Positions 37,997-47,434 of a stretch of 47,475 bases of DNA are shown piece after piece. The stretch comes from Candidatus Micrarchaeia archaeon (GTDB lineage Archaea > Micrarchaeota > Micrarchaeia > CABMEP01). Made by a program: the position numbers and the translations under genes. How positions within the stretch are numbered: position 1 is the first letter of the stretch; each line of letters begins with the position of its first letter. The notes beneath the pieces were generated by a model. The model was not told the DNA's origin and did not search any database. It worked only from the letters and a program-made list of their open reading frames with translations. The stretch covers positions 74,791-122,265 of the forward strand of contig JAVZRC010000001.1 of NCBI GenBank assembly GCA_038880755.1, in the 5' to 3' direction.

Positions 37997-39250
37997 ATGA
38001 TAATCATGACAGAAAGAGAGGAGAAGATAATAAAGAAAGGAGAAAAGAAGGAAGAAAAGAAACCTTCACTATGGCAAGGAATGAAACCACTAGTTCCAGA
38101 TACAATTAGTTTTGATGAAACAGAAATCAATACATCTAAAACCATTCCAATAAATATAAATAAGAATCAAATAGATTACTCATCGGTTATAAAACTTAAT
38201 GAGAAGGTATTTTATCATATTAAAGAGATATATGAAAAGAATAAAGATCCATTTACTCTTTATTTATTAATAGACAGTGCCCGTTCGTTGGCACGCAAAC
38301 AACCAACAATTGAAAAAACAGAAGAAGTCTATACTGAAGTAATTAAAATAATAGATGAAATGCTGAAAGAACAGCCAAACAATCTTTACTTTATTAATCT
38401 TAAACTCAGCATTTATTACGAATTGGCGGAAATGTATTATAATGCTTATAACTATATAAACAATGTACCTATTTCCCAATCTAATTTCACTAAAGAGAGT
38501 AAGCCTACCTTATGGCAAAGAATGAAAAAACCATTAGCTGCAGGCCTATTAGGTGCTTCTTTACTTTTCAGTCCAGTAAAGAATGCAGATGCAGTTGGAT
38601 TTTATGCAAGACAGCCACCTTACTATGCAGCTAAAGTAATAGAAAAGAAATACAATACAGGTTGGAAGCTTTTAGTAAAAGTACACAAAGATAAAATTGG
38701 AGAAATTAATATAGATGATTCATTAGGAATAAAATTAAATGAATCAGCAATCAATTATTTCAAGAAAAAATATGAAGAAACAAAAGATATTGATGCCCTC
38801 TATCTATGGGTTTATAGTATTTATTCTTTAGCTGCATATCATCAAACATTTGAAGAAACAGAAAAAACCTGCCTGGAAGCAATAAAAATAATAGACGAAA
38901 GACTAAAAGAAAAACACGATTTCAATTTTATAGATCTAAAATTAACGATATATTACAATTTAGCTGATGTATACTATGACGGCGCAATGAAAGATCCACG
39001 TGCCGTAGCCTGGGGACATGTTGATTTCTCAAAATTAGATTTCTACAAACAAAAATCAATCGAATATTGTAATAAATATAACAAATATCTTGAAGAAGTA
39101 AAGAAAATATGGGATAAAGTGGATATGTTCATTTTTAAAGACTTAAGATATAATCAAAATGATGTAGAAGACACAAAAAACGTATTTATGAAATCTTATG
39201 AAGAAGATGATAAAAAAATCCAAATCATTCTAGACAAACTAAAAGAGTAA
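37997..39250 (+). CDS. Hypothetical helical protein made of two tandem homologous units
   Basis: KPSLWQGMK...IKIIDEMLKE...FINLKLSIYYELA recurs as KPTLWQRMK...IKIIDERLKE...FIDLKLTIYYNLA. Confidence 0.8.
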   Translation: MIIMTEREEKIIKKGEKKEEKKPSLWQGMKPLVPDTISFDETEINTSKTIPININKNQIDYSSVIKLNEKVFYHIKEIYEKNKDPFTLYLLIDSARSLARKQPTIEKTEEVYTEVIKIIDEMLKEQPNNLYFINLKLSIYYELAEMYYNAYNYINNVPISQSNFTKESKPTLWQRMKKPLAAGLLGASLLFSPVKNADAVGFYARQPPYYAAKVIEKKYNTGWKLLVKVHKDKIGEINIDDSLGIKLNESAINYFKKKYEETKDIDALYLWVYSIYSLAAYHQTFEETEKTCLEAIKIIDERLKEKHDFNFIDLKLTIYYNLADVYYDGAMKDPRAVAWGHVDFSKLDFYKQKSIEYCNKYNKYLEEVKKIWDKVDMFIFKDLRYNQNDVEDTKNVFMKSYEEDDKKIQIILDKLKE

Positions 39251-39280: not shown

Positions 39281-42181
39281 ATGAGTTTATTTTTGTTTGA
39301 TGCGATTGGAAACGCTGAAAAACTAGGCGAACAATTCAAACAGCCTTTTCCCACTCTTCAACCCCCGCCTCCTTCTTTCTCTTCCTTTTCATCAAATTTT
39401 ACTCACATTATCAGAGCAGATGAAAACAAAATGCTTGTAGTAAACCAACCCCCTCTTGAAGTTCTTCTTTCTTTAAAACAACAACAAGAACAGCAAAAAG
39501 AACTAATAGAAACAAAAGAAAAAGAAGAGATTGAAGAAAAAGAAGAAATAAAAGAAATAAGTCTGGAAGAAGAAGCAGAAAATCTGCTTGAAAGCTGCGA
39601 AGAATATGAAGCTATAATTGCAGAAATGGAAGGAATGATTCAGACATTAGTAACAAGAATACAAAACAGAGGAAAGATCTCATATCCTGTCTCATTTTTA
39701 ATAACAAAATATGTAGAACCTGCAATAAAGGCAGAAGAAGCAGCAGATTCATTAAAAGAAGAAATCTCATCACCAGAAAAGAAAGAAACGAAAATAATGA
39801 AAGAACTGGATGAATTTGACGAATCGCTTATAAAAATAGATCCAAAACTCTCAATAATAGAAGAATCAATCAATAAAATAGAAGAAAATAAAGGCAATGA
39901 AAAATTCGTAATAAACGAAGCCTCAAGAATCGCATCCCTTTCAGATCTTGAAACCCTGCTGGAAAAGGATGCAAAGATCATAAAAGACAAAGCATTTGAA
40001 GACAGCAAAGAAGAGAGAGAAGAGCGTATAGATTCTGCAAAAGCGCTGATAAATTCGTTTATTGAAATGTTGGAAAAGGCAGAGGGAAAACTCGGCAGTT
40101 TAGTAAAGCAAGGAAAGAAGGAGATTCCACCTGACTTTTATGAGAAAAACCTTTCACCCTTATTGCAGGACTTTCCAAAAAGCATCCAAGATTATATCAA
40201 ATATAAATCAAAGGATAGGATGACCACTCCTGGCGAACTTATTAGGATTATTGATGAGATAATAGACTGGTTAAGATCAGACAGATTTCTCAAAATTCTT
40301 GATAATGAAGTCATAAACAGCGATCTTTCTGGAAAGAATGTTCGCGAGATCCTTGAAGAGGCATTAAAGAAGACAGAAGAATTTATGAAGGCAAAAAGAA
40401 AGCTGGAAGATGCAGTGGCAAGGAAGGATAATAATGCTATAATTCAGGCATTGGAAGAAATGAAGGTTCATATAAAATCGAAACCAATTACTAAGAGATT
40501 GGCTGAATTTAAGGAAAGATTAGGAATACTTATTGAAATGAAGCAAAAGGCTGAAATGGAAAAAATAAGGAAAAAGAAAGAGATCGAGTCGATAGAAAAA
40601 GAAATGAATGAGATTTACAATCAAATTGCAAGATTCCTAGATGAAATGGGCCCATTCTTTCAGATTTTCAGATCTATAAAGATAGCAGTTAATCAGCCAA
40701 ATCAAAACATATCCAAAGCATATCTTGAAATGATTCAAAATCTTCTTGAAAAGCTGAGAGAAACAAACTCTATAGCGATTGAAACCAAGAACAAAAGAAT
40801 TCCAGAATATATTTATCTTAAAAAGAAATACGATCAGCTTAAGAAATCAAAATTCGAATCAAAAAAGGAATATCGTGATGCACTGTTGAAGGAAATAGAA
40901 GCATTTTCCTCTCTTTATAAGGATGATGCATATAAATGGTTAAAAGATGGATCTGTTGAAGAGATAGAGGAATGGATTTCTGTTTCTCTGAAGCGCGATC
41001 CAAAGGAAAAATTAAAGTGTGCTATTCTTTTGCTGAATATAGATATTTCCCTTTACAATATGGCAGTCACGCTTCAATGGAAACAAACTGCATATTCCAC
41101 ATTGCTAAAACAGTTCCTTGAGAAAAAGATTTCAGAAGATACATTGGTAAAAAATGTAAATAGGATTTATTCGATATCTCCAACAAACGGCCGTGCCTTT
41201 CCTGCTATTTTAAATTCTAGAAATATAAAAAAGGAGATGTTCCGTGACATAGATCTCCCAACTAAGCTCGACTCTCTTATAGAACAGGAAGAAAAAAAGG
41301 AGAGAGAAATACCTGAATATGTTTTTAAGGATTTTAATGACATTCTGCAATTTAAGAAGAGAGAATTTGCTGAATTACAAATCAAAGATTTCAACTCTGC
41401 AGCAGAAGTTTATATCCAACTTCTTATCAAATATAAGAAAGAGAAAACAAAACCTTCACTTAATTTAATAAACGGAATTGCTGAGTTCTTATCTAATGCA
41501 GAGTACCTTGTTCATTCTTATAACAGTTTAGTTTCAAAGTTTTCCAGAAATGAATATGAATTAATGGATGATTTGATTTCACGTGAGCTGCTACCAAAGT
41601 CCATGTCTCTTTTCTTTGCAGCCCATAGCGTGGTAGACAAAGAAGGATTTTTCATACTGCATGATGTATTTGAAAGATATCTAAAGGCGCTCAGCATTAA
41701 TCACCTTCTTGTATATATCCGTTCTTCCTCTCTCAATGAAATGACTCAATTAATGGCAACAACCTACTTAAAGTATTCCCCTAATGTATCTTTTAGCTGC
41801 GCAATGAACTTATATTATAATAAGAAGTATAATGAAGCAATCAAAATGTTTCAAAAGATTTTAAAGAAGAGCAATTCCAATTATGAGAAAGCTACAATTT
41901 TGCTTTATATGGCTGAGGCATACAAGTCTTTAGGTAAATTTGATAAGATGGCTGATTGCATTATTTCCATACCCTCTCCTGATGATATGAAAGATATGTC
42001 ATACGTTAATGCCAAGCTCTATAAACTTTTAGAATTAATGGGCTTAATGGAAGAGAGAAAGGATGAATTTAAGACAGTAGCATTGGCCGATATTGAAAAA
42101 ATAAATAAAGAGTCTGATGTGCTCTCACGAAGCGAGTTGGAATTTAATTCTCTTCTTCAGAAGTTGATAGAACTTTACTAA
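39281..42181 (+). CDS. Large coiled-coil hypothetical protein with C-terminal TPR-like helices
   Basis: 966 aa, E/K-rich; AMNLYYNKKYNEAIKMFQKIL and YMAEAYKSLGKFDKM are TPR-like; low-complexity N-terminus. Confidence 0.75.
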   Translation: MSLFLFDAIGNAEKLGEQFKQPFPTLQPPPPSFSSFSSNFTHIIRADENKMLVVNQPPLEVLLSLKQQQEQQKELIETKEKEEIEEKEEIKEISLEEEAENLLESCEEYEAIIAEMEGMIQTLVTRIQNRGKISYPVSFLITKYVEPAIKAEEAADSLKEEISSPEKKETKIMKELDEFDESLIKIDPKLSIIEESINKIEENKGNEKFVINEASRIASLSDLETLLEKDAKIIKDKAFEDSKEEREERIDSAKALINSFIEMLEKAEGKLGSLVKQGKKEIPPDFYEKNLSPLLQDFPKSIQDYIKYKSKDRMTTPGELIRIIDEIIDWLRSDRFLKILDNEVINSDLSGKNVREILEEALKKTEEFMKAKRKLEDAVARKDNNAIIQALEEMKVHIKSKPITKRLAEFKERLGILIEMKQKAEMEKIRKKKEIESIEKEMNEIYNQIARFLDEMGPFFQIFRSIKIAVNQPNQNISKAYLEMIQNLLEKLRETNSIAIETKNKRIPEYIYLKKKYDQLKKSKFESKKEYRDALLKEIEAFSSLYKDDAYKWLKDGSVEEIEEWISVSLKRDPKEKLKCAILLLNIDISLYNMAVTLQWKQTAYSTLLKQFLEKKISEDTLVKNVNRIYSISPTNGRAFPAILNSRNIKKEMFRDIDLPTKLDSLIEQEEKKEREIPEYVFKDFNDILQFKKREFAELQIKDFNSAAEVYIQLLIKYKKEKTKPSLNLINGIAEFLSNAEYLVHSYNSLVSKFSRNEYELMDDLISRELLPKSMSLFFAAHSVVDKEGFFILHDVFERYLKALSINHLLVYIRSSSLNEMTQLMATTYLKYSPNVSFSCAMNLYYNKKYNEAIKMFQKILKKSNSNYEKATILLYMAEAYKSLGKFDKMADCIISIPSPDDMKDMSYVNAKLYKLLELMGLMEERKDEFKTVALADIEKINKESDVLSRSELEFNSLLQKLIELY

Positions 42182-43092: not shown

Positions 43093-43785
43093 ATGGCAGA
43101 ACCTAAAAAGATACAGATTGGAATCTCTGGAATAGATGACATGCTTAATGGTGGAATACCTAAAAGGCATCATGTGCTTGTTTCAGGTGGTCCTGGAAGC
43201 GGAAAAACATTATTCTGCTTTGAATACCTTTATAGAGGTGCAAAGAAAGGAGAGAAGGGTCTTTTTATTACCTTAGAAGAGGATCCAGAATTAATAGTTG
43301 AAAACGTAAAGAGCGCATTTTCAGGATTGAAGGATATAGATTCAATGGTAGATAAGGATATATTCATCATCAAACCTGCAATGTATGACTTCAAAAACTT
43401 TTCAGATATCCTCCAGTCTTATGTGGTTCATCACGGCGTTAAAAGAGTGGTCATAGATTCATCTACTTTACTCAGATTCAGCTTTGAAGAGGTTTTGGAG
43501 TTTAGGAAAAAACTTATTGAATTCCTTAGTTTCCTAAGAAATCTGGATTGCACTGCATTGATTACTTCAGAGCTAGAGAATCCAGTAAGAAACAAAATGA
43601 AGTTCAACATAGAACAGTTTGCAGCAGACGGAATCATAGTTCTTTACAACATGCCAAGAAAGGAAAAAAGAATAAGGGCTTTGGAAATAATAAAAATGAG
43701 GGGAACAGATCATTCAAGAGATCTGGTTCCAATGAAGATCACATCTCAAGGAATAACTGTATTTCCAGGTGAAAAGATCTATTGA
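43093..43785 (+). CDS. KaiC/RAD55-like RecA-family ATPase (intact)
   Basis: Walker A GGPGSGKT, ITLEE, Walker B VVIDS, ADGII, KMRG. Confidence 0.93.
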   Translation: MAEPKKIQIGISGIDDMLNGGIPKRHHVLVSGGPGSGKTLFCFEYLYRGAKKGEKGLFITLEEDPELIVENVKSAFSGLKDIDSMVDKDIFIIKPAMYDFKNFSDILQSYVVHHGVKRVVIDSSTLLRFSFEEVLEFRKKLIEFLSFLRNLDCTALITSELENPVRNKMKFNIEQFAADGIIVLYNMPRKEKRIRALEIIKMRGTDHSRDLVPMKITSQGITVFPGEKIY

Positions 43786-43832
43786 TTGATGATAATATAG
43801 AGATTTAATAAGAGAGTTAAGATAGTGGTTTA

Positions 43833-44642
43833 ATGAAAATTGATAATGAATATGTTTCATTCATTTTCGATCTTGAACAAGATATAGATTTAAGCAAGCT
43901 TTCAAAAAGCAAGAACTTTCTTTCGCTTCCAAACGAATCCAACTTTTTGTTTTCTGTTATTGAAAACAAGATATTTTTCATTGTTTTTAGAAGCGGAAAA
44001 GTGAGGATCACCTATCCAGACGGTGATGTAGAATCTCTTCAAAAAAATATTTCAGAGTTTGCACCAAAGATAAGCGAATTATTTAACGAAGTTAAAGAGA
44101 AAGCTAAGATAAAGGCAAACATATCTTCAGTTATTTCAAAAGGAAGATTCGAAAGCGAAAAAGATGGCTTTGAGATAAGGAAAGAGATCTGTGAGAAGGA
44201 TTGTTCAATTCCAGTAGGGCTTTTTATGGATTTGGCTTTTCTTTCTCCAATGCAGTTGTTCGGCCAATATAACCATGAAAGATTGCTAACTTTTTCAGGC
44301 GAAAAATTCGGCAGAAAGATTTCTGCCAAGAATAAGCAGGATTTAGAGAAAGAAATAAAGAAATTTATTGAACAGAACAATCTAGGGTCGGTTGAACTGA
44401 TAAAAACAAAGGAGGATGAAACAGGAGCCATTCCTTTTTCTTCCTTCAGGGTATACAAAAGCAAGTTTGTATATGGATTGCCGCCGACTGGAAAGGCAGA
44501 ATGTTATTTCATACAAGCTTTGATAAGGGGCGCATTTGCGTCATATCTTAAACAGGAAAATATCAACATAATAGAAACAAAATGCTGGAGAAAAGGAGAT
44601 GTTTATTGCGAATTCAATGTTTATCTGTTAAAACATTCATGA
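43833..44642 (+). CDS. V4R-domain protein with a TBP-like N-terminal domain
   Basis: V4R motifs ECYFIQALIRGAF and ETKCWRKGDVYCEF; N-terminus DLEQDIDLSKL...IVFRSGKVRIT resembles a TBP repeat. Confidence 0.75.
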   Translation: MKIDNEYVSFIFDLEQDIDLSKLSKSKNFLSLPNESNFLFSVIENKIFFIVFRSGKVRITYPDGDVESLQKNISEFAPKISELFNEVKEKAKIKANISSVISKGRFESEKDGFEIRKEICEKDCSIPVGLFMDLAFLSPMQLFGQYNHERLLTFSGEKFGRKISAKNKQDLEKEIKKFIEQNNLGSVELIKTKEDETGAIPFSSFRVYKSKFVYGLPPTGKAECYFIQALIRGAFASYLKQENINIIETKCWRKGDVYCEFNVYLLKHS

Positions 44643-44751
44643 TTAGATTCGTGATTAGATATTTTTATTAATTAGATGTATTAATATTTTTATTAATATT
44701 CTAAAAATATATTCTAATGATCAATAAAAAGTACAATAAAAAGTAGGTTTT

Positions 44752-45441
44752 ATGAAATCTCAAAAGGATAAAATAGGAATTGATTTTATAGATAATCTAA
44801 TGCAAGGAGGGCTTCCATCAAAGACAGCTCTGCTAATAGAAGGCACATCTGGAATCGGCCAGAATGTCATGCTTTATCAATTCCTTTATGAAGGAATAAA
44901 GAATAATGAAAAATGCATCTATCTATTTTCAGGACATATGATAGATGAGATAATGGATGAGTTTGAGTCCTATGGAATAGAGATAAAGGAAAAGGATATT
45001 GTTTGGATTGATGCCTCTTCTTCCAATGAAAATGCAATTCAATGCGATTTATCAGAACTTTACACTGTTTCTTCAGCCATTAAAAATGTGATCTCAAGCA
45101 GAAAGAAAAACGAAAAGATAAGATTTGCTACTGATGCAGTATCTCCCATGCTGATGGCAAATAATCCAGGAGAGGTTTACAAGTTTCTTTCATCGCTTAT
45201 AACAGAGCTGAAGAAAGCGGATGCACAGTCAATGTTTATAATAGAGGATGCAATGCACGAGCCCCAGGTAACTGCATCTATAGAACAGCTTTGCGACGGA
45301 GTTATTGAATTAAAGGCAATTGAAAGAGATTTGGAAATTGAAACAGTAATGAAGATAAAGAAGATGAAGAATATTCCTCCATTTCAAAAATATTTCAAAT
45401 ATAAAGTTACAGAAGAAGGTATAGTGGAAAAGAGGGAATAA
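44752..45441 (+). CDS. KaiC/RAD55-like ATPase paralog with degenerate catalytic motifs
   Basis: Same architecture (GGLP, CDGVIEL) but Walker A is GTSGIGQN, the EE motif is lost and KMR is KMK. Confidence 0.85.
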   Translation: MKSQKDKIGIDFIDNLMQGGLPSKTALLIEGTSGIGQNVMLYQFLYEGIKNNEKCIYLFSGHMIDEIMDEFESYGIEIKEKDIVWIDASSSNENAIQCDLSELYTVSSAIKNVISSRKKNEKIRFATDAVSPMLMANNPGEVYKFLSSLITELKKADAQSMFIIEDAMHEPQVTASIEQLCDGVIELKAIERDLEIETVMKIKKMKNIPPFQKYFKYKVTEEGIVEKRE

Positions 45442-45442
45442 C

Positions 45443-46201
45443 ATGTCTGAATTTGCAAGCGAATCAAATCTAACAAACATAATTGCAGAGATCGCAGGAT
45501 TGTCAGCTCCATTCTATCTAATAATTGCATTGTCTCTGCCAATAATAGCTGCCTTCCTAGTATACAGATACTTAATAACCAATAAGATAGTTGTTGACAA
45601 ATTAGCAAAGAAAAGACTCTTTGCTTCCATGCTTACTGCAGTGTTTTCAATCTTATTCACTGAGATAGATGCTATAGGATCACTGACTGGATTGGAATTC
45701 GGACAATACGTTCTGATAAGGAGATATGTGGGTGCAGTTGCAATATACGGAGTTTATCTTTTGTTCTGCTCACTAATTGAATCAGCTTTGAAATATGATT
45801 ACACCCATAACAGAAAGAGGCTTGTGCAGGACGGGCATATGGGAAGAATATCCAGCTTCCTTCTCATAGCCATACTAATTATTTCTCCATTTATTGGGGA
45901 TAAGCAGCTTTCAGATTTCTTTACATTCATGATAGCAGTACTCTTGCTTTTAATTATGATAATTGCATTAAAAGTTTTGAAAGATACTGAAAAGGGAATA
46001 AAAGACAAAACAACAAGAAAATTCACTGTATGGTCTTGCTATCAGGTTGTTTTCATGAGCATAGGCGCATTTTTCAATACAGTTGCAATATTGGCAAGCC
46101 TTCCGCCTGCAGCAAACCTGATAAGAATACCAATGTCTATCCTAGTTGCATATGCAGCTTATAAGGTTTCAAAGAATTTAATAAAAGTAGAAGAAGAGTA
46201 A
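45443..46201 (+). CDS. Membrane protein with about 7 TM helices (putative sensor)
   Basis: Seven hydrophobic segments by eye; starts 1 nt after the upstream stop codon. Confidence 0.75.
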   Translation: MSEFASESNLTNIIAEIAGLSAPFYLIIALSLPIIAAFLVYRYLITNKIVVDKLAKKRLFASMLTAVFSILFTEIDAIGSLTGLEFGQYVLIRRYVGAVAIYGVYLLFCSLIESALKYDYTHNRKRLVQDGHMGRISSFLLIAILIISPFIGDKQLSDFFTFMIAVLLLLIMIIALKVLKDTEKGIKDKTTRKFTVWSCYQVVFMSIGAFFNTVAILASLPPAANLIRIPMSILVAYAAYKVSKNLIKVEEE

Positions 46202-46210
46202 GGTGGTCTT

Positions 46211-47434
46211 ATGGATTCAATTCTTCCAAAAAGAAGAGAGACATTTCAGGTAAAGGTTGGAAACATAACTATTGGCAGCCAGCATCCAATCGTAGTCCAG
46301 TCAATGACAAATACCAATACAGCTGATGTTGATTCAACTGTAAAACAGATAATAGAACTTAATCAAGCTGGATCAGAAATGGTAAGATTCACAGTAAAAG
46401 ATGAAGAAATGGCAAAGGCAGTTCCAGAGATAAAGAAAAAACTTATCGACCAGGGATACACCCTTCCTTTAATAGGAGATTTCCATTTCAACGGGGATAT
46501 TCTTCTTTCAAAATATCCAAAGATGGCAGAGTCTCTTGACAAATGGAGGGTCAATCCAGGAAACGCAGGAAGCGATGAAAGATTTAGAAATATTATAAAG
46601 CTTGCAATAGACTACAACAAGCCTATAAGGATAGGCGTAAACGGAGGTTCATTGGATCAAAAACTTCTTGCAAGGATGATAGAAAAGGATTTGAAGAAAC
46701 CAAAAGAAAAGCAGCTTGGTTCCCACAGGGTTTTTCTTGATGCAATGATAAAGAGCGCATTGACGTCTGCAGAATCTGCAATAGAGGCAGGAATGCCAGA
46801 AAATGCAATTATACTTTCAGCTAAGGTCTCAAATGTGAGAGATCTGATTTATGTTTATTCCAATCTTGCAAGGAAATGCAAGTTTCCTCTTCATCTTGGG
46901 CTGACAGAGGCTGGAGGAGGATCAAAGGGAATTGTTGCATCAGCACAAGGAATAGGAATTCTTTTGAATCAAGGAATCGGGGATACGATTCGTGTTTCTA
47001 TCACTCCAAGGCCAGGGCACAGCAGGACTGAGGAAGTGATTGTTGCTCAAGAAATACTTCAAACCCTTGGCCTTAGGGCATTCTTCCCGATGGTTACAAG
47101 CTGCCCAGGATGCGGAAGAACAACAAGCACTGTTTTCCAGACAATCGCAGAGGAGATAAGTAATTATCTTCAGCAGCAGTCTCAGGTTTGGAGGGCGCAG
47201 GGATACAAGGGATTTGAAAACATGAAGGTTGCAGTTATGGGTTGCATTGTGAATGGCCCTGGGGAGTCAAGAGAAGCAAACATAGGATTAAGTCTACCAG
47301 GCTCTGGTGAAACACCTTCAGCCCCTGTGTTTGCAGACGGAAAGCAGATTGCAACCCTGACAGGGGATGCAAAAACAATAGCAGATCAATACAAGAAATT
47401 GATAGAAGATTATGTGAAAAGTCATTATAAATAA
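46211..47434 (+). CDS. ispG: (E)-4-hydroxy-3-methylbut-2-enyl-diphosphate synthase (IspG/GcpE), bacterial type
   Basis: VQSMTNT, GDFHF, RVNPGN, RIGVNGGSL, LHLGLTEAG, GDTIRVS; [4Fe-4S] ligands CPGCGR and GCIVNGPGE. Confidence 0.97.
   Translation: MDSILPKRRETFQVKVGNITIGSQHPIVVQSMTNTNTADVDSTVKQIIELNQAGSEMVRFTVKDEEMAKAVPEIKKKLIDQGYTLPLIGDFHFNGDILLSKYPKMAESLDKWRVNPGNAGSDERFRNIIKLAIDYNKPIRIGVNGGSLDQKLLARMIEKDLKKPKEKQLGSHRVFLDAMIKSALTSAESAIEAGMPENAIILSAKVSNVRDLIYVYSNLARKCKFPLHLGLTEAGGGSKGIVASAQGIGILLNQGIGDTIRVSITPRPGHSRTEEVIVAQEILQTLGLRAFFPMVTSCPGCGRTTSTVFQTIAEEISNYLQQQSQVWRAQGYKGFENMKVAVMGCIVNGPGESREANIGLSLPGSGETPSAPVFADGKQIATLTGDAKTIADQYKKLIEDYVKSHYK

Follow-up and report, generated by a model that had tools for sequence, protein, structure and literature searches.

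A protein encoded in the genome of a Candidatus Micrarchaeia archaeon carries a single lobe of the TATA-binding protein (TBP) fold joined to a V4R domain. The presence of both parts in one chain is confirmed. This domain architecture is real and, it appears, has not been described before; the kinds of system it falls into are known. The protein belongs to both the TBP-domain superfamily and the V4R family, yet it is not a TBP, not an MsvR and not a MopR-type phenol sensor. Judged by its sequence, the protein is not a TATA-reading TBP, because the stirrup Phe, the loop that contacts TFB and the pairing arm are missing and a near-invariant Arg58 has been acquired. The two most informative facts about the gene, both missing from a preliminary description made from the DNA letters, are that it lies in a conserved KaiC cassette and that its host has a single-lobe TBP. 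A sensor-controlled output, as suggested in that description, is plausible.

The gene lies in a stretch of 47,475 nucleotides (the window), in which the following features are relevant here:

43093..43785, + strand: KaiC-like ATPase of a single domain, Walker A intact, immediately 5' of the fusion gene (PF06745, E 6e-56)
43833..44642, + strand: TBP-lobe/V4R fusion gene (269 aa; 47 full-length homologues aligned)
43854..44108, + strand: single TBP lobe, residues 8-92 (conserved S9, D19, K22, K25, N37, F52, G55 and R58; no stirrup Phe, no crossover arm)
44121..44156, + strand: linker, residues 97-108 (helix and short strand 105-106, from DSSP of both models and structural alignment ranges)
44202..44639, + strand: V4R/Bet3-fold domain, residues 124-269 (predicted Zn site C224, E248, C251 and C259, plus W252)
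44752..45441, + strand: degenerate KaiC-like protein, likely inactive (PF06745, E 1.6e-28, and DUF7504)
45443..46201, + strand: uncharacterised membrane protein with about six hydrophobic segments by hydropathy, following the degenerate KaiC

Domain make-up and occurrence of the fusion

The open reading frame at 43833..44642 (+) yields a 269-aa product whose N-terminus reads as quoted in the preliminary description. That description had recognized a TBP repeat pattern in the N-terminal part and a Cys-containing V4R signature in the C-terminal part, and both assignments held. Pfam TBP (PF00352) matches residues 8-82 (profile positions 7-84/85; E 2.4e-5, 24.5 bits, cut-off 22.9), and Pfam V4R (PF02830) matches residues 205-263 (E 2.1e-10), with the Cys/Glu/Cys/Cys residues of this domain present. 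Canonical TBP has two tandem repeats, whereas the fusion has one Pfam TBP stretch, and its residues 124-269 are V4R. A V4R match was obtained for 32 of 32 family members and PF00352 at E<=0.1 for just 6 of them; the TBP signal of individual sequences is weak.

An AlphaFold2 model of the fusion, based on an alignment of 32 sequences, reached pLDDT 93.3 and pTM 0.89 and was compared with 48,161 PDB representatives. Residues 8-108 superposed on yeast (7o4i_O, Z 9.0, rmsd 3.0), Sulfolobus (1mp9_B, Z 8.6, rmsd 2.9) and human TBP (5fur_A, Z 8.1, rmsd 3.1), with 88 residues aligned in each case, making TBP the top fold match of the N-terminal part. Residues 124-269 matched PoxR (Z 16.4, rmsd 3.0, 138 aligned), DmpR (Z 15.8) and MJ1460 (Z 13.5). 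The expectation that residues 1-110 would retrieve TBP structures was also borne out. When these residues were folded alone (pLDDT 88.4), TBP came first by two methods: TBP chains took ranks 1-4 in VIA (Z 8.6, 8.4, 8.0 and 6.7; best non-TBP match 6.4), and Foldseek gave TBP in every row listed to rank 42, with a best E of 2e-4. For the whole chain, the Foldseek rows listed were of the V4R fold only.

Profile methods gave the same assignment. The family profile of the fusion finds 1mp9 at E 0.0042, and hhalign aligned the lobe profile to TBP repeats with P 83.7% and E 8e-6. Membership of the single lobe in the TBP-domain superfamily is thus supported by PF00352, hhalign, the family profile, VIA and Foldseek. 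An Atlas structure search with the lobe returned TBP clusters in three of four rows, one of them a 212-aa cluster mostly from Iainarchaeota. A single-sequence phmmer search of the fusion against PDB gave one chance match only, and an Atlas feature search with residues 1-100 gave no usable match. RNase HIII and AlkA lobes were absent among the fold matches listed for the lobe, which excludes nothing.

The fusion gene is rare and patchy. Of 622 candidates from a word-based search, 8 were close homologues; the nearest (94%) is from a Candidatus Micrarchaeia archaeon. A HMMER search of 1.84 billion representatives gave 76 matches. Alignments of first 32 and later 47 full-length sequences, some of them near-duplicates, were prepared. 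Source names of the homologues include Micrarchaeota, Diapherotrites/Iainarchaeum and a "DPANN group archaeon", with a separate clade from Methanobacteriota and Hydrothermarchaeales; the family spans Micrarchaeota, Iainarchaeota and, probably, Hydrothermarchaeota. Among 301 sampled genomes of the phylum, 21 had a match, 6 of them full length, and 3 of 38 genomes matched in the phylum of genome G305, which represents the outside clade. A search with the lobe profile for longer proteins, of limited sensitivity, found 9 among 7989 scored, all 9 with V4R. Stand-alone lobes of 56-205 aa, sought with a word-based search also of limited sensitivity, were represented by one partial protein among 1409 candidates. 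A weak TBP match in genome G306 was rejected as a MoeB/ThiF fusion, a known architecture.

The remodelled lobe and the TBP of the host

Positions of the lobe were mapped through a HMMER alignment to 1mp9 and a deduced hairpin register. The preliminary description had pointed to the DNA-intercalating Phe positions of TBP, and one of the two per lobe is kept. This is the Phe of beta4-beta5, F52, found in 39 of 47 homologues, which we take to be the equivalent of yeast TBP F116. At the stirrup position, Phe, Tyr or Trp occurs in 0 of 32 members, and the alignment against 1mp9 has a deletion there. The canonical concave-face residues are N69, T124-G125 and V122 in yeast numbering. The strand-1 minor-groove Asn was found in 0 of 32 members, the beta3 Arg in 1, the concave-face Thr in 10 and the Gly after this Thr in 1. 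At the mid-face position that is Val or Ile in TBP, Arg is found instead in 29 of 32 members of the first alignment; in the 47-sequence alignment, R58 at this site is present in 44.

Other positions of the lobe are conserved to different degrees: G55 in 47 of 47 homologues, D19 in 37, K22 in 32, N37 in 29, S9 in 27 and K25 in 26. G55 and R58 are retained across members with 20-40% identity. By the 1mp9 alignment and the deduced hairpin register, S9, N37, F52 and R58 map to the face that contacts DNA in TBP, and K22 and K25 lie in helix 1 of the lobe. The accessible text of PMC7221094 describes a conserved aromatic loop position, L5.1, as a shared signature of double-stranded nucleic-acid binding in TBP lobes, and F52 would correspond to this position. 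The same text links the acidic stirrup residues of TBP to TFB contact. The acidic TFB-contact loop, E-P-E-Q-F-P-G, is invariant in 12 of 12 half-TBPs and was found in none of the sequences of the fusion family alignment.

The pairing arm of half-TBPs, F7-x-x-E10-N11, likewise invariant in 12 of 12, is missing from the fusion. The first half of strand 1 in TBP reaches across to the opposite lobe. We regard this crossover arm as absent from the fusion because 27 of 32 members have six or fewer residues ahead of S9 and some begin at the stop codon of KaiC. The preliminary description had read the segment KIKANISSVISKG as the NIVAS strand of a second TBP repeat. This reading stands only in part: residues 97-102 were modelled as a helix, and residues 105-106 form a short strand in both models (DSSP), which structural alignments run along the start of the TBP second repeat, on the path of its first strand. 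If the models are correct, this linker strand would occupy the slot of the partner lobe's first strand and produce a self-capped lobe. The earlier suggestion of a TATA-binding saddle, or a faithful TBP mimic, is not supported, given the lost stirrup Phe, strand-1 Asn, post-Thr Gly and pairing arm, and the Arg at the Val/Ile site.

The origin of the lobe was examined by comparison with 25 MoeB-type lobes, which are not known to bind DNA. With hhalign, the lobe profile aligned to true TBP repeats with P 79.5% and E 1.5e-5, versus P 20% and E 1.1e-3 for MoeB-type lobes. Eight TBP repeats ranked above the best MoeB lobe, with overlapping single-sequence scores. The fusion lobe looks derived from TBP proper, nearer to TBP repeats than to MoeB lobes in these profile comparisons. 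MoeB-type lobes often retain the same Phe as F52, which makes this residue weak evidence for DNA binding. The net charge of the lobe is modest, with a family median of +2 and -2 in the present protein; half-TBPs of the host type range from +1 to +16.

Apart from the fusion, the host genome (82.6% complete) has one PF00352 match only, at G000:C1:33463-33708 (L001:1477-1764, +). This 95-aa frame holds a single repeat, ends in a clean stop and has every TATA-contact motif intact. Within the order, 8 of 9 genomes have a TBP match, and the main match is always a frame of 92-105 aa. Single-lobe TBP is found in many families of the phylum, two-repeat genes in others, and two lobes in separate frames in some. 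Each of the 8 Micrarchaeota-group genomes that carry a full fusion, spread over four families, has single-repeat TBP, and all three fusion genomes of the outside clade have two-repeat TBP (frames of 181, 208 and 181 aa). We dropped the co-occurrence of fusion and half-TBP as support for a functional link, as single-lobe TBP is common in the phylum and there are three counter-examples.

Two further observations concern TBP evolution in this group. Two single-lobe TBP frames per genome, possibly a two-chain TBP, were seen in G216 (contigs C93 and C6) and in family f4, e.g., in G102, G123, G139 and G223. In the two-repeat TBPs at loci L052, L053, L055 and L056, the repeats are 57-69% identical to each other, compared with 43% in L054, which suggests, by sequence identity, a recent re-duplication from a single lobe.

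The V4R domain and the KaiC cassette

Residues of the predicted Zn site are nearly invariant among the 47 homologues (C224, E248 and C259 in 46 each, C251 in 47), and so is W252 (46). MopR-type sensors have a zinc site of three Cys and one Glu (PMC10715001, accessible text). The Cys/Glu/Cys/Cys set of the fusion matches this site, and the domain is predicted to bind Zn. No conserved His for the phenol-anchoring His/Trp dyad was found in the alignment, in which the column richest in His is position 225 (8 of 32 members) and the sole conserved Trp is W252. The available portion of PMC2253512 suggests that V4R passes signals to effectors, either in cis or in trans. Other V4R proteins carry HTH, Roadblock, thioredoxin, ACT or GGDEF domains, and related V4R domains have an HTH in the same N-terminal slot (P0064, P0071, P0078 and L063).

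A quick tree of 69 V4R domains placed 28 fusions and 8 short, lobe-less forms in one clade (SH-aLRT 99; P0067 was labelled lobe-less in this tree by mistake). The short forms are nested on several branches of the main clade, and the outside clade stays separate. Two of them, L010 (G260) and L036 (G216), are whole lobe-less genes adjoining KaiC. Six short forms were compared: W252 is present in none of them (versus 46 of 47 fusions), F212 also in none (versus 25 of 47), and the Zn residues are kept. W252 and the 210-217 loop decay together with loss of the lobe. Thus, it is the V4R domain that forms the core linked to KaiC, and the lobe is an add-on module constraining this domain. Locus L010 (contig C9 of G260) also has a second KaiC gene, so that the lobe-less V4R relative is flanked by two. 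Stand-alone V4R-like genes were also observed in tandem, in arrays of two to five or more, at G109:C1:959753-962199, G202:C24 and G245:C33.

Genes at 43093-46201 are ordered as intact KaiC, fusion, degenerate KaiC and membrane protein. Intact KaiC lies directly 5' of the fusion in 15 of 15 main-clade loci with that gene in view (the window, L030-L035, L065-L071 and L123; these are related rather than independent, and L064 ends at that gene). Walker A is intact in 14 of 14 upstream or adjacent KaiC copies examined, and its GK[TS] is gone in 9 of 9 copies of the degenerate KaiC. The latter follows the fusion in 9 of 13 main-clade loci that show the downstream gene. The membrane protein was seen next in 7 of these 9, and it has homologues in L030, L031, L035, L064, L066, L068 and L072. 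No Pfam or NCBIfam family was found for the membrane protein at 45443..46201; Atlas gave a weak lead to HisKA_7TM (score 0.83, 10% of members).

Among the nine genomes of the order, the close KaiC and the fusion occur together in five and are jointly absent from the other four (completeness 92, 90, 82 and 54%). The two genes have been gained or lost jointly. Related KaiCs (~52% identity) occur in 89 of 301 genomes, with a V4R-type neighbour in 0 of 25 loci checked. In the outside clade (L060, L092 and L093), a type II/IV secretion ATPase gene lies directly upstream of the fusion in 3 of 3 genomes, and a GIFT/DUF4350-like protein follows the fusion in two of them (L060 and L093). All 18 loci with a visible upstream gene thus have an ATPase gene immediately ahead of the fusion, of the KaiC type in 15 and of the T2SSE type in 3. 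By eye and without statistics, no operator-like motif shared by 11 upstream regions was seen, and a scan with a sigma-70-type promoter model, which is not suited to archaea, gave chance-level results.

Several other features of the neighborhood and of KaiC genes were noted. The 0.68-Mb host assembly has seven PF06745 matches, five of them near full length. At loci L127-L151, related KaiC genes in families with two-repeat TBP are often divergent from a conserved gene, which shows up solely as an antisense frame that keeps recurring, and several are followed by a small conserved protein of ~130 aa. IspG (GcpE) is encoded directly 3' of the cassette (46211-47434, +), a linkage seen in the same genus only; DXP reductoisomerase and IspH are also encoded in the genome, giving this archaeon genes of the bacterial-type MEP pathway. 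Upstream, at 39281-42181 (+), is a gene for a 966-aa charged helical protein with weak C-terminal TPR matches only. The products of 37997-39250 (+) and L001:1825-2682 (-) share a basic-then-hydrophobic segment that ends in N-A-D-A or K-A-N-A and resembles a signal or pilin-type leader; in the former it lies mid-sequence, after an internal repeat, and a family scan of that protein alone gave no confident assignment.

Possible functions and relation to known systems

We tentatively favor the idea that the fusion is the transcriptional output of a KaiC/V4R signalling cassette and likely binds non-TATA DNA, like an MsvR in which a TBP lobe takes the place of the HTH, and we put its chances at somewhat below even. 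The lobe is read as an output because other V4R proteins carry domains such as HTH and because V4R is believed to signal to effectors. The membrane protein would be a candidate input, feeding the cassette together with the degenerate KaiC, and KaiC with its degenerate partner would act as a hub. A predicted V4R dimer may contact and couple to KaiC and would sense a redox, zinc or small-molecule signal. The dimer held together by V4R could then present two remodelled lobes to a putative non-TATA site, each lobe self-capped by its own linker strand, so that no TBP saddle would form and no TFB would be recruited.

Several observations count for such an output: KaiC adjacency (15/15), the degenerate KaiC (9/13) and the 5/9 co-occurrence. 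A lobe that appears nearer to TBP than to MoeB, with conserved residues mapped to the DNA face, and, by analogy, the HTH in the same slot of related V4R domains and MsvR as the best NCBIfam match also count for it. Loss of W252 and F212 in lobe-less forms that keep the Zn residues is what would be expected if V4R signals to the lobe. The modest charge of the lobe and the lack of a shared operator-like motif count against it. So does the fact that the lobe is dispensable, as whole lobe-less genes stand beside KaiC in G260 and G216. The 25 related-KaiC loci with no V4R-type neighbour speak against a strict tie between KaiC and the fusion.

The secretion ATPase that takes the place of KaiC in the outside clade fits a protein adaptor at least as well. 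Such an adaptor, in which V4R docks on the neighbouring ATPase (KaiC or secretion ATPase) and the lobe, without acting directly on DNA, engages a protein or a nucleotide, is possible, if rather unlikely. It would account for the ATPase gene upstream in 18 of 18 loci, the loss of TATA and TFB residues and the modest charge of the lobe; in AP and COPG appendages, platform domains of the TBP fold serve as hubs for protein interactions (PMC3597702, section 25). However, the lobe is nearer to TBP proper than to MoeB lobes, and conserved residues, basic ones among them, remain on the nucleic-acid face. We consider it improbable that the lobe is an intramolecular lid or passenger that packs on V4R via R58, N37 and F52 and gates or stabilises it, leaving the V4R-KaiC contact as the working surface. 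The pTM of the two-domain model would imply a fixed domain arrangement, several branches of the clade lack the lobe yet retain the neighbouring KaiC, and the joint decay of W252 and the 210-217 loop with the lobe also fits direct contact between the domains. Yet G55 and R58 are kept even among distant members, and many V4R proteins that lack the lobe also have the C-W-x-x-G motif (a search pattern that retrieved them), so W252 is not lobe-specific.

A slightly smaller chance attaches to a role in basal transcription. Where TBP is a single lobe that needs pairing, the fusion could take the place of one half, giving a signal-controlled TBP that is inhibited or re-specified; prompted by KaiC/V4R, it would release the capping strand and pair or compete with the host half-TBP, switching off or re-specifying basal promoters in a manner reminiscent of sigma/anti-sigma factors, a scheme that we judge just as doubtful. 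The single-repeat TBP of the host, of its order and of all eight Micrarchaeota-group genomes with a full fusion is in keeping with this idea, and relatives with two separate lobes (G216) hint that mixed pairs may exist. But the outside genomes with a fusion all have two-repeat TBP and the arm needed for pairing is missing, which makes this role unlikely. In addition, the linker is predicted to fill the slot of the arm, and with single-lobe TBP common in the phylum, co-occurrence over three or four families says little. Least probable is the strong form of the preliminary description, a homodimer that rebuilds the TBP saddle on TATA boxes as a ligand-controlled alternative TBP. The TBP fold, the retention of F52 and G55 and the dimeric state of V4R proteins such as MopR and MsvR agree with it; they are set against the missing stirrup Phe, strand-1 Asn, beta3 basic residue, post-Thr Gly, acidic TFB-contact loop and pairing arm, and against Arg58 at the mid-face Val/Ile position.

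In this lineage, whose TBP is single-lobed, a lobe that looks derived from TBP proper has been joined to a sensor domain and linked with a KaiC-type ATPase. DNA binding by the fusion would give V4R regulators a new kind of output and would connect the proposed archaeal KaiC hubs directly to transcription; pairing with the host half-TBP would be a new way to regulate the basal machinery. All parts are small soluble proteins, so both ideas are open to in vitro study without culturing the organism. No paper dealing with a fusion of TBP to V4R, or with single-lobe TBP of Micrarchaeota, was found in a search that covered few subscription papers and main texts only, and the accessible portions of PMC5847659 and PMC8407392 contain no description of a TBP-V4R fusion.

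Compared with canonical TBP (PF00352; 1mp9, 2z8u, 7o4i and 5fur), the fusion has one lobe of the same fold and strand order (Z 8-9) and keeps the F-x-[NDS]-G-[KR] turn and the DL motif. It differs in being single-lobed, in lacking the crossover arm, stirrup Phe and acidic TFB loop, in its mid-face Arg and attached V4R, and in being patchy and non-essential. Single TBP lobes, used alone or in fusions, are known from monopartite proteins: stand-alone lobes of Thermococcales, TbpA, the RNase HIII N-domain, DNA glycosylases, the MoeB C-terminal lobe and AP/COPG appendages, according to the available text of PMC3597702, which also proposes single lobes as a stepping stone in TBP evolution. A fusion to V4R is not among the architectures in that text, in which "V4R" does not occur, and the profile of the fusion lobe is closer to TBP than to the MoeB-associated lobe (P 79.5% versus 20%).

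MsvR, an ArsR-HTH plus V4R protein of methanogens, is a dimeric redox regulator whose DNA binding is tuned by three V4R cysteines (PMC3729527, accessible text). The fusion is similar in size, and in it too a V4R that has three conserved cysteines carries an output domain at its N-terminus. Its best NCBIfam match is MsvR (NF053755; E 6e-11, 42.5 bits versus a cut-off of 220), over residues 156-263 only, i.e., the V4R part. No Pfam HTH match, and so no ArsR-type HTH as in MsvR, was found in the fusion; it has a TBP lobe instead, sits in a KaiC cassette, and its DNA binding is predicted. The phenol sensors MopR, DmpR and PoxR (5kbe, 6iy8 and 5fru) are the best structural matches of the C-terminal domain (Z 16.4 and 15.8), with Cys3Glu zinc residues present; the fusion differs from them in having no conserved His for the His/Trp phenol anchor, as judged from the family alignment, and no AAA+ or sigma54 part. 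Finally, archaeal KaiC-like ATPases are proposed to serve as hubs of signalling, together with KaiC partners that have been inactivated (Makarova et al. 2017, as cited in the accessible text of PMC5847659). The cassette resembles these hubs, through genomic linkage, in its active KaiC, degenerate KaiC, membrane protein and V4R-type module, and differs in that the attached module is a TBP lobe.
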